Below, in pieces: positions 60,801 through 63,800 of a stretch of 64,000 nucleotides of DNA. This DNA is from Oscillospiraceae bacterium (GTDB taxonomy: Bacteria; Bacillota; Clostridia; Oscillospirales; Oscillospiraceae): positions 2,733 through 66,732 of the forward strand of contig JAFUMG010000049.1 in the NCBI GenBank assembly GCA_017473225.1, written 5' to 3'. The position numbers were made by a program. Position 1 is the first letter of the stretch, and every line of letters starts with the position of its first letter.

Positions 60801-63800
60801 GGCATGTCATTGCGCATCAGCTTTATGAACCGCAGAAACATCCGCAGGTCGAGATAGTATTCGGATATCGTTTTTTGAGACTGGCCTTTGATCGTTTCGT
60901 GATAGGTCAGAAAATCCCGCAGAATCTGGGGACAGTCGGTATAACGCTGCATTGTATTGCCTCCAATTTTATGATCCTGAGGTTATTATAGCATATATGC
61001 GCTACGAACGCAACAAAATTTTTATTTTGTTGCGTTCGTTCTTTTGCCCTTGACAGGGCTGCTTCTCCTGTGTTATTTATTACTCGACAATTGAATATGG
61101 GGGCGGCTACCGGATTAGTCGCCCGGTGGCTGCCCCCTCTCCTTTTGTCGTGTCAAAGTGTGGTGAATAAAATGCTTAGTATCGGCAACACCGACCCCGT
61201 TGTCTTGTATGATCTTGCTGTCAAGCTTGAAGCGGCTTTCAGTCCGCACTCCCCACTTATTGACCAAGAATCTGAACTTTTTAAAACCCTATGTGAGGTA
61301 TATAACTCAGTTTGGGGTCAACTTCCGAACAAAATCACAATCGACTTTTCCGAACAACCTTAAAAGTTACAAAATGTTACCATTTCCGAGTTGCACCGGA
61401 ATGGAGGTTTGCACGATGCCTGAGTGCAGATGCCAATGACAGAGGTTGCTGGGGGTTGGGCTATCAGCCCCCACAATCTGCTATGCGGCTGTTTCCCTCC
61501 TCCTGTGTTACCCTACCCATAGCGAAGCTGAAAGCGCACGGTACAGCCCTACAGAGGACGCTATAGGCTTCCCTGCGCGAACCTACCGAGCCTTGTTAGG
61601 GGCATACACCCCGAAAGCGAAGCTTTCCCTTGTATGCCAAACGGCGGCGAATAGCCGCCCAGCGCCCCCGGCGCAAGCTTCAGTTTATCTGCCGCTTTGA
61701 ATGTGAAGTATCCGTTTTTCCGTGTCATGCCTTTCCGGTGCTCGTACCTGTCCGCAAGCGGATGGGGCTTCGGGGACCCTGTCCGCTTGCGGGCGGGGAC
61801 ACTCGCCGGAACGGTTTTGACACACGAAACGCATACTACGACTATTGCGTTTCGTGTGTCATGTGTCAACACATCTGACACATTCCCTCGTTTGTGTCAT
61901 GTGTCAAGATTTGGAGGTGTATATCCCCTTTGCCAAAGAAAGATTTTTGTTGCGTTGATAACTTTTCTGTCCTAATTCCCTACCGAGATCTTGAGCGACT
62001 ATTGGAAACTGCGAACAAAATGCAGTTTTTTCAAGATCAGCTTTCACGAACCAACGAACAGTTGACCGCACTACGGATCATGTATTCCGAAGCAATCGAA
62101 AAAATTGCGGAAATCAACCGTTATCTCTGACTCCCTTATGAGACATCCGGGAAATTTATGTGTCAACAAAACGATTATTTTGTTGCGTTCAGCTGGCCCA
62201 AAAAGAAACAGGCCAAGGTCTGGCCCATCTGAACCGCTGCGCTGTCCACTCGCAACAAAATAATGGTTTTGTGTCGTTTGCCGAGGTGCTTCCACCTCCC
62301 TCGACGCTATTCTGCCACAAGCGGGCGCAAATGTCAAGCCCTTTTCCGGCCCGGCTTGCTGCGCCGTCTCCGGCCCTTGGCGGTGAGCCGCTTATCTGCC
62401 ATGGCGTAAATCAGCGTGACTTCAATACCGCCGTGATTCAAGGCCCGGCGCACCCGGTCGATATCGCCGTACTTCTCGAGGAGCTTCACGGCGTAAACCT
62501 TCCGGGCACTGTGGGGCGCGGCGTTGGCGGTTAACCGTGCCGCAGCCGCCGCCCGCTTCACGTCCTTCCATACCGCTTGTCTGGTTCTGTGTTTCCCGGG
62601 CTTCGCCCCGGGAAACACCCATTCGCTGTCTGCGCTCTCGCGCAGATCAGCGAGCAGCGGCTCCGGCAATCCCACTTGCCGCCGCTTCCCGGTCTTCTGC
62701 TCCGTGATCCAGAAATTGGGCTTGAGCTGCCACGGGCGCAGCTGCAGCACGTCCCCGATCCGCAGCCCGGTATGCAGCAGCGTCCGCATGACCAACCGAT
62801 TCTCATATGTCAAGAGGTCGAGCACCAGCTCGACCTCTTTCTCTAGCAAATATTCAGTCCTCATTGCTGCACACCCGGGCCATCCGAGCCACGAACTCGG
62901 ACACCGTGGGCGCACCCTTGTACGGGCTCAGACTGTACCCGAAAATACCCGTGATGGTATCGATGCTGCCACGGTCAAAGGCCGTTTCAATGGCGTGCCT
63001 CATGGCCCGCTCTACGCGCGCGGGCGTGCTGCCGCACTTCCGCGCCACGATGGGATACAGCTCCTTAGTGATGCCCATACCGGGCTTCCACTCCTGCACC
63101 GCTACCCGCAGCATCTCGGTCCCCTTGATACTTTCCCGGAATCCGAGCAGCATCATTTTATGGTCCAGTTCCTGCAAATTGATACGATTTTCCATGATTA
63201 TTCCTCCACTTTTGTATGAATTACCGCCAGTTTCCCGGCTGCGGTATCAAATGTTATTGTGTCCGTTTTATTGGACAGTTTATCAAAATCAATGTCGGTA
63301 TATTCCTTTGGCGGCTCCTTCAGAGCGCCGCCGGAATAGTACCAGCGGCCCATAGGCCGCTGGCCCTGCTGCTTGCCAATGTACTTACAGACATACCACA
63401 CCGCCCGGGGGTATTCCCCCCGCAGCTTGATGGCGGTCGTGAATCCATATTTCCATTGAGGCAAGTTATAAACAGTTTGTCCACAGGTATCTTTGTGCCC
63501 GCTATCCTCCAGCTGGAGATTGTCCCCGGCGAAGAACCCATGAAAGTGCAGTGCACCATCCCGGTGCAGCTCCGGCACGAGGATGTATTTCAAGCCGTTC
63601 CGGCGCACCATGTTGTCGCACCACTGGTTCAGTGCCTTGGTGATGACCTTGGGGTCATATCGGTCTATCTTGGTTTTGTCCAGTGTCAGCGTTACGAAAT
63701 AATCGAACTCGTTAGCGAGGGCGAGCCGCCGCAGCTTCGCGCGGGCTCGCCTCATGCTGCGCAGCTGGTCGTCACCCTCTGATTTCTTGCCCGCTTCGCG

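Follow-up and report, generated by a model that had tools for sequence, protein, structure and literature searches.

The stretch of DNA analysed here, 64,000 nucleotides from an Oscillospiraceae bacterium (GenBank assembly GCA_017473225.1, contig JAFUMG010000049.1, positions 2,733 to 66,732 of the forward strand; hereafter the window), carries close to its right end a gene for a Xer-type tyrosine recombinase, three sites that resemble the Xer target dif, and genes of Y, a rolling-circle, plasmid-like element of about 3.3 kb that is integrated at dif and whose genes to the right of site 3 all lie on the minus strand (Table 1). G000 denotes the source genome, C57 the contig that holds the window and C13 the contig on which the locus continues. 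An earlier sequence-only reading had taken sites 2 and 3 for two inverted dif-like sites that fold, as in the phage CTXphi, into an attachment site (attP) made of single-stranded DNA (ssDNA). Our comparison with relatives suggests that this class of mechanism is probably right for the family of Y, which would enter dif through a folded pair of sites called P2 and P1, but that the hairpin formed by sites 2 and 3 is best seen as a chimeric by-product of two stacked mobile elements and not as the functional attP of Y.

Table 1. Features at the right-hand end of the window (strand given for genes only).
Feature	Position	Strand	Remarks
Host Xer-type tyrosine recombinase, 332 aa	59954..60952	-	Pfam Phage_integrase and SAM-like N-domains; directly adjoins dif
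Site 1, chromosomal dif	61004..61039		AACGCAACAAAA-TTTTTA-TTTTGTTGCGTT; perfectly palindromic arms
IMEX-1, orphan insertion of 1.15 kb	61040..62163		No rep or recombinase gene; relatives have dif then Y loop at this place
IMEX-1 perfect 16-bp hairpin	61818-61861		Loop TACTACGACTAT; repeat finder
IMEX-1 open reading frame, 78 aa	61894-62130	+	Within IMEX-1
Site 2, hybrid junction	62164..62190		Left arm and spacer TGTGTCAACAAAA-CGATTA from IMEX-1; right arm and flank TTTTGTTGCGTTCAG = inner arm of Y P1
Apical loop of predicted Y attP hairpin	62191..62250		Own small stems; GCGCAGCGGTTCAG...CTGAACG on Rep-sense strand, orientation and motifs as in circular relatives
Site 3, P2 of Y with outer flank	62251..62290		CGCAACAAAA-TAATGG-TTTTGTGTCG; flank GTTTGCCGAG pairs with P1 flank on C13
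Y mini tyrosine recombinase, 176 aa, catalytic domain only	62334..62864	-	Pfam Phage_integrase over nearly the whole protein
Y Spo0A C-terminal-domain-like DNA-binding protein, 113 aa	62854..63195	-	NCBIfam spore_0_A, model residues 159-252
Y rolling-circle HUH Rep, 268 aa	63198..64000 (start codon 4 nt outside the window)	-	Pfam PF23343 REP_ORF2-G2P; PHROG 3419 rolling-circle initiation

The dif locus and the elements stacked at it

Without mismatches, the core motif CAACAAAA-N6-TTTTGT is confined to three positions of the 64 kb (61011, 62164 and 62253), and the entire 1.78-Mb assembly contains no others; with up to two mismatches there are nine matches in the window against 0.19 expected. 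A repeat finder lists 62166-62187 and 62251-62272 as an inverted repeat of 22 nt each, 95% complementary and spaced by 63 nt. This is the repeat that had been described from the sequence alone, and its sole mismatch does fall within the 6-nt spacer (CGATTA vs TAATGG; full pairing would need CCATTA). The two small stems described for the loop, GTTCAG/CTGAAC and TGGCC/GGCCA, are present as well, and 62150-62290 folds as ssDNA with -25.8 kcal/mol (z = -3.5, 1 of 200 shuffles equally good). What had escaped the earlier description is that each arm of the repeat is itself a palindromic arm-6-arm core site.

Several observations show that site 1 is the chromosomal dif of this genome, as had been supposed. 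In each of the 19 loci examined in relatives, xer has an identical site immediately upstream of it, and the exact dif 30-mer is found in at least 120 species-level genomes, all of them Oscillospiraceae or unclassified metagenome-assembled genomes (MAGs) of Clostridia, many named Faecousia, with the one exception of a 3.3-kb contig binned to an Odoribacter MAG. There is one perfect copy per genome, with the conserved xer alongside, and the GC skew changes sign across the junction of the two contigs, from positive on the C57 side to negative on the C13 side. The 332-aa Xer has its top NCBIfam matches in XerC/XerD, below the equivalog cut-offs, and its gene is single-copy in 21 of 24 genomes of the genus and in all 16 other genera sampled in the order. 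The dif and terminus of an abundant uncultured gut genus are hereby located, and dif is there a hotspot for stacked small elements. In G000 (C13:6492-7379, minus strand; score 318.7 bits, cut-off 329.6) and likewise in L044, L045, L046, L051, L053 and L054, a gene for a 295-aa XerD-like recombinase is found 1.3-6 kb past dif, which separates it from the 332-aa xer. Two xer-type genes bracket dif despite its perfectly symmetric arms, and because the XerD-like gene sits only a few kb beyond dif we do not claim a single-recombinase system. The window contains no tRNA or tmRNA gene, and tRNA-targeted integration was therefore rejected; an Rfam scan of 59000-64000 gave no family.

The relatives of Y define its extent. 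The element adjoins dif in all genomes and metagenome contigs in which its flanks are visible, and the order is fixed: xer on the minus strand, the perfect dif, 50-110 nt, an intact P2 (spacer TAATGG), the mini-recombinase, Rep, about 1.3 kb of GC-rich DNA, a far site with dif arms and a 9-nt spacer (CCTCTGTCA or CCTGATTCA), and the flank. Over integrated and circular relatives together, 46-133 nt separate the intact P2 from dif or P1. In the source assembly, C57 stops 298 nt past the window in very GC-rich DNA, and its end and the start of C13 are collinear on the circular relative L081, from which we conclude that Y consists here of C57:64896-end, a gap of about 0.5 kb and C13:1-575. The only 9-nt-spacer site of the assembly, CTAACGCAACAAAA-CCTCTGTCA-TTTTGTTGCGTTCG, lies at C13:551-575 and is followed by chromosomal genes (SDF symporter). 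The far end had been predicted to carry an arm close to AACGACACAAAA-NNNTTA-TTTTGTTGCG; this arm is absent from the assembly, and the 9-nt-spacer site stands in its place. The exact dif stands bare in 103 of the 120 species genomes that have it; in the others a P2-like site accompanies it, at a distance of 54-133 nt on the TTA side in 16 and on the opposite side in one. Relatives of Rep were detected in 11 of 100 genomes of the genus. The P1-type pattern was found in none of 300 other genomes of the order.

The mini-recombinase is encoded in every copy of Y. The residues R, K, HxxR, H and Y are invariant in six homologues, whose proteins start with MRTEYL, and matches in the PDB span catalytic domains only, the core-binding domain being missing. 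Rep has invariant HFHG and YVCKYIGK motifs (YxCKY, with the catalytic Tyr), and the Spo0A-C-like gene is present in about half of the relatives. The gene set of filamentous phages (Inoviridae) is lacking: circles of 3.0-3.9 kb contain nothing but rep, optionally the spo0A-C-like gene, the mini-recombinase gene and a GC-rich non-coding tract. In G000 this tract between rep and P1 is about 1.3 kb long, very GC-rich, dense in hairpins and devoid of a convincing open reading frame (G000:C57:66740-67030 and C13:1-530), and the assembly broke in it; it may hold replication origins or structured RNA. A search of viral contigs with the single Rep protein gave no matches; a search with a Rep alignment found Reps of 26-35% identity on gut viral contigs of 6.8-145 kb (IMG/VR, L056-L078). 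In L046 (11942-12075), a copy of the loop and P2 with 93% identity comes after the 9-nt-spacer far site, and the similarity stops behind it; this copy is a relic of a tandem or earlier Y, with a P1-loop-P2 junction inside a chromosome. More degenerate Y relics are seen in L045 and at G000:C13:~662.

Site 2 combines sequences of two origins. Its right arm and flank (TTTTGTTGCGTTC) are shared with site 1, and the right flank, GCGTTCAGC, is the flank of the regenerated dif in Y-carrying relatives and the inner P1 flank of circles; in L011 and L047, the perfect dif runs straight into GCGTTCAGC and the Y loop. The left arm and spacer, ATGTGTCAACAAAA-CGATTA, extend leftward into 1.15 kb that are seen in no relative, and the left flank of site 2 shows no complementarity to site 3's outer flank. 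Since Y-carrying relatives have the Y loop directly after dif and lack the 1.15 kb, a second, unrelated element, IMEX-1 (named after the integrative mobile elements exploiting Xer, IMEX), is inserted between the perfect dif and Y, and site 2 is an IMEX-1/Y hybrid. Either order of insertion yields the same structure, and the sequence does not reveal which element came first.

IMEX-1 has no DNA or protein relatives in 100 genomes of the genus and no blastn or tblastx match in any fetched locus. The repeat finder detected TGTGTCA and repeated TGTGTCATGTGTCAA units in it, and the loop of its perfect hairpin resembles a pMV158-type nick site; IMEX-1 may be a non-autonomous rolling-circle satellite. 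A P2-like partner for it was not found to the right of site 1, where there is only a half-site (61143-61155). The 13 nt to the right of site 1 at the start of IMEX-1 (CGTTCGTTCTTTT; 61027-61052) recur unchanged in the chromosomal flank on the right-hand side of the far site (G000:C13:568-590), and the attP of IMEX-1 may have captured this flank of dif during an earlier excision. Contig joints from 61037-61040 to 62255 in runs X1 and X3 were not used; they have 21-26 matching letters on the shorter side and probably stem from other strains. Stacking at dif is seen elsewhere: L044 has an analogous insert of 6.85 kb, and L051 (G114:C6) a 6.1-kb element that ends in a site with an 8-nt spacer, AAAGCCTA, and whose Rep is 27% identical to that of Y. 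Several element families appear to use sites with non-canonical spacers at this dif.

Circular relatives of Y and the exchange point

Searching metagenome contigs with the Rep alignment yielded 80 loci. About 20 of the contigs, 2.9-3.9 kb long, end in repeats (55, 77, 127 or 141 nt) that mark them as circular assemblies, and carry P2, loop and P1. On the Rep-sense strand, these circles have P2 (usually AAACAAAA-CCATTA-TTTTGTTG), a loop of 46-109 nt and then P1, CAACAAAA-TGACAGAGG-TTTTGTTG, with a spacer of the type T(G/A)ACAGAGG. The two sites are unequal: P2 has a canonical 6-nt spacer that has only TTA in common with dif, and P1 a non-canonical spacer of 7-11 nt, mostly 9, that always starts with T(G/A)A, where dif reads TAAAAA on the same strand. 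A contig from an independent study (run X4) is 3255 nt long, circularly permuted and about 93% identical to the present Y (window 62255-64000), with a depth of 110 compared with about 3 for exact pieces of IMEX-1 in that run; these depths come from contigs and are not copy numbers, and the contrast hints at a multicopy free Y or at a more abundant second host.

The comparison of circles with integrated copies shows where the crossover takes place. In integrated copies, P2, the loop and the inner arm of P1 stay joined, abut the dif spacer and regenerate a perfect dif, and the spacer, outer arm and flank of P1 end up at the far end, here at C13:551-575. These junctions place the exchange point at CAACAAAA^T on the Rep-sense strand, and accordingly in P1. 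A crossover in P2, which would put the loop beside P1 at the far end, was never seen in integrated copies. On each strand, tyrosine recombinases cut 5' to the spacer (PMC4246890), and a model with a single exchange therefore admits only the Rep-sense strand; it would also be the strand that a rolling-circle Rep displaces. The arms of the element track those of the host dif: a second host clade has the dif ttGAACAAAA-TAAAAA-TTTTGTTCaa (GAACAAAA-TAAAAA-TTTTGTTC) and Y relatives of its own (L136, L138, L153 and L157), and the P1 arms of circle L136, GAACAAAA/TTTTGTTC, match this dif.

The P2/P1 stem and its possible roles

In minimum free energy folds, P2 is paired with P1 in most of the 49 loci folded. 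The complementarity runs 3-6 bp past the dif arms, into sequence outside any Xer arm, and the outer flanks change by compensatory substitution: CTCGGC/GCCGAG, GGCC/GGCC, GGTC/GACC, CAC/GTG and GCGC/GCGC. At the flank positions outside AACG/CGTT, 70% of the cells are paired as compared with 49% with shuffled partners (0 of 2000 shuffles attain the observed 70%, although kinship among the sequences inflates this statistic and to that extent weakens the case) and with 26-36% in shifted registers. RNAalifold on 38 distinct sequences recovered the long-range stem, with double compensatory changes at 5 of 22 pairs, two of which lie inside the supposed spacer (CC/GG to CG/CG or AC/GT). The central region is asymmetric: CC-A-TTA stands opposite T(G/A)A-CAGA-GG, and both of its ends pair, CC with GG and TTA with T(G/A)A, leaving a bubble of 1 by 4 nt. 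For the question of which strand folds, the counts of G.T against A.C (32 vs 22) are uninformative overall, the exception being T.G at the spacer TTA/TGA in 24 of 39 sequences. When the attP of Y was rebuilt from site 3, the loop, the right arm of site 2 and the spacer and flank on C13, it folded into the forked hairpin of the family (-36.1 kcal/mol, z -5.2) with the outer stem CTCGGC/GCCGAG, compared with -29.8 kcal/mol for sites 2 and 3 as found, whose pairing ends at ACAAAA because the flanks do not match. The P2/P1 stem is kept among homologous elements, with compensatory changes. Together with the inverted dif-like pair and the one-sided TTA/TAA homology, the covarying hairpin upholds the proposal of a CTXphi-style attP for the element family; its assignment to sites 2 and 3 did not stand.

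We suggest, with a probability of roughly two in three, that Y enters dif via a folded P2-P1 attP, that the hairpin of sites 2 and 3 is chimeric and that site 1 is dif. The displaced Rep-sense single strand would fold, and P2 and P1 would form a forked stem that imitates duplex dif, with both arms paired, the spacer ends closed around the small bubble and the stem prolonged past the arms by the 3-6 covarying pairs. The host Xer, possibly aided by the recombinase of Y that lacks a core-binding domain, would then exchange one strand, CAACAAAA^TGA... of P1 with CAACAAAA^TAAAAA of dif, and replication would finish the integration. As the integrated copies show, the inner arm of P1 is fused to the dif spacer, so that a perfect dif is regenerated beside the loop and P2, and the remainder of P1 is left at the far end. 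In this genome IMEX-1, with a canonical 6-nt-spacer site, sits between the perfect dif and the Y loop. The integration would be irreversible, since a dif with a 6-nt spacer and a far site with a 9-nt spacer should not recombine as duplexes.

Several points weigh against this proposal. The stem has conserved mismatches, among them A.G in the outer arm in 32 of 39 sequences, and the arms of P2 do not covary with those of P1, which dif fixes. Covariation does not separate ssDNA from RNA or from a single-strand replication origin. Two copies of Y, L053 (G112:C94) and L054 (G075:C17), are integrated in the opposite orientation, so that the regenerated dif reads TTTTTA on the Rep-sense strand, and these reversed copies leave just 1 nt of spacer homology; the orientation bias of integrated Y is about 16 to 1. 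Moreover, Y has its own recombinase and the host a XerD-like gene near dif, and the comparison does not fix the acting protein.

The alternative that survives best, although we consider it unlikely, is integration as duplex DNA: the double-stranded replicative form would recombine through P1 with one strand exchange, as in VGJphi, and P2 would be an accessory site for Xer or the mini-recombinase in synapsis, directionality or copy control. The integrated products are the same as those that a single strand exchange on the duplex replicative form would give, and this scheme hence predicts the junctions equally well; P2 is a canonical arm-6-arm site and, unlike attP2 of CTXphi, not obviously incompetent as a duplex, and the recombinase of Y could tolerate odd spacers. 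Nevertheless, the 7-11-nt range of the P1 spacer is hard to square with a duplex core site, and an accessory protein-binding site would not have to be complementary to a partner 100 nt off, let alone show compensatory changes in flanks beyond the Xer arms and inside the spacers. Slightly less probable still, in our view, is that the P2/P1 stem has been selected for another role of ssDNA or RNA, as a single-strand origin, a cruciform at the Rep origin or a terminator or processing hairpin of the rep-int operon, with recombination proceeding via P1 only. In favour of this, rolling-circle replicons depend on single-strand origins with a secondary structure, the rep-int operon lies immediately upstream of the hairpin, and covariation names no function; yet each half of the stem reproduces the dif arms exactly and with dif-like spacing, the ends of the spacer resemble dif on the side of the exchange (TTA/TAA), and no T-run follows the stem. 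Recombination and another function could also coexist.

That sites 2 and 3 themselves form the functional attP of this element, as the literal sequence-only reading has it, now seems very improbable. Their 22-nt stem with a single mismatch and its z of -3.5 speak for it, but the left arm and spacer of site 2 continue into the 1.15 kb that all relatives lack, the flank of site 3 matches the far-site flank on C13 at 10 of 11 positions, the predicted far-end arm is missing from the assembly, and every circle pairs P2 with a P1 that has a 7-11-nt spacer. The near-perfect stem arises because two spacers in opposite orientation, that of IMEX-1 (TAATCG on the minus strand) and that of P2 (TAATGG on the plus strand), each imitate dif on its TAA side; neighbouring dif mimics of different elements can look like one hairpin, and this calls for caution. 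An invertible switch, in which the mini-recombinase flips the 63-nt segment between two inverted full sites beside its gene, was rejected as hardly credible: the orientation of the loop is constant in 38 of 38 aligned elements and in the window, 46-109 bp are very short for an inversion, and the sites are dif mimics of which P1 is demonstrably a crossover site with the chromosome.

It is tempting to go one step further, if only tentatively, and to regard the Y family as a widespread CTXphi-like mode of dif entry in which the mini-recombinase is a new Xer co-factor, catalytic or allosteric, that lets the host Xer act on the hairpin without FtsK. We think that this is possible but rather doubtful. 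If it were true, a recombinase-assisted hijacking of Xer would exist outside the Proteobacteria and outside phages. The main proposal, if it holds, would already mean that the folded-strand strategy is either general for rolling-circle replicons or convergently evolved, and it would link a minimal recombinase consisting of the catalytic domain to the hijacking of Xer. The 7-11-nt spacers, the conserved A.G mismatch and the covarying flanks would then provide natural variation to work with.

Comparison with known systems

Experiments have documented the integration of folded ssDNA at dif only for CTXphi and a small number of gamma-proteobacterial relatives, namely RS1, Ypf and CUS-1 (PMC4246890). 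We found no description of Xer-exploiting elements in Oscillospiraceae or other Firmicutes in the literature searched, and the family of 3-kb rolling-circle elements to which Y belongs in gut Oscillospiraceae is apparently undescribed. Related strategies share individual traits with the elements at this locus. In the XerS/difSL and XerH/difH single-recombinase modules (PMC5357621), xer also lies directly beside a site with near-palindromic arms, but the 332-aa host Xer scores best as XerC/XerD-like and not as XerS, and a XerD-like gene is present a few kb beyond dif. In integrons, IntI acts on the folded bottom strand of attC for recombination with attI; what we propose for Y is similar in that a tyrosine recombinase works on a single strand whose fold keeps conserved mismatches or bulges, and replication resolves the product. 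In contrast to integrons, Y has no IntI-type integrase, since its mini-recombinase lacks even the N-domain, there is no cassette array, and the target is dif. Elements of the VGJphi type integrate through a single duplex attP by a XerC-only exchange. IMEX-1 resembles them in having one canonical 6-nt site (CGATTA) with one-sided TTA homology to dif, but it lacks genes for replication or virions as well as detectable relatives, and Y departs from them by its two sites and the non-canonical P1.

The closest parallel to Y is offered by the CTXphi/RS1-type IMEX of Vibrio cholerae. In CTXphi, attP1 with a central region of 12 bp and attP2 with one of 5-7 bp are inverted and 90 bp apart, and neither is competent as duplex DNA (PMC4246890); the folded attP(+) of about 150 nt recombines by a XerC-only exchange that needs homology beside the XerC arm (Val et al. 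2005 as summarised in PMC4246890), and integration is irreversible (PMC4246890). Y likewise integrates at dif and carries an inverted dif-like pair about 90 nt apart in a rolling-circle replicon, with unequal or over-long central regions (12 and 5-7 bp in CTXphi, mostly 9 and 6 in Y), a predicted folded structure of about 150-190 nt, and dif homology confined to the bases beside one cleavage point. Both keep one intact site about 100 nt inside the junction and regenerate a functional dif, so that arrays are possible. The differences concern the host, the element and the enzyme: Y resides in Gram-positive Oscillospiraceae with a symmetric dif beside xer; it measures 3.3 kb, has a Rep of the PF23343 family and no virion or morphogenesis genes, and its ssDNA substrate is putative; and it encodes a tyrosine recombinase without a core-binding domain, whereas IMEX are defined as elements that carry no recombinase. 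Judged by its sites and junctions, the layout of Y appears to match that of CTXphi point for point, but in a Gram-positive host, in an element that is not a phage and with a mini-recombinase of its own.

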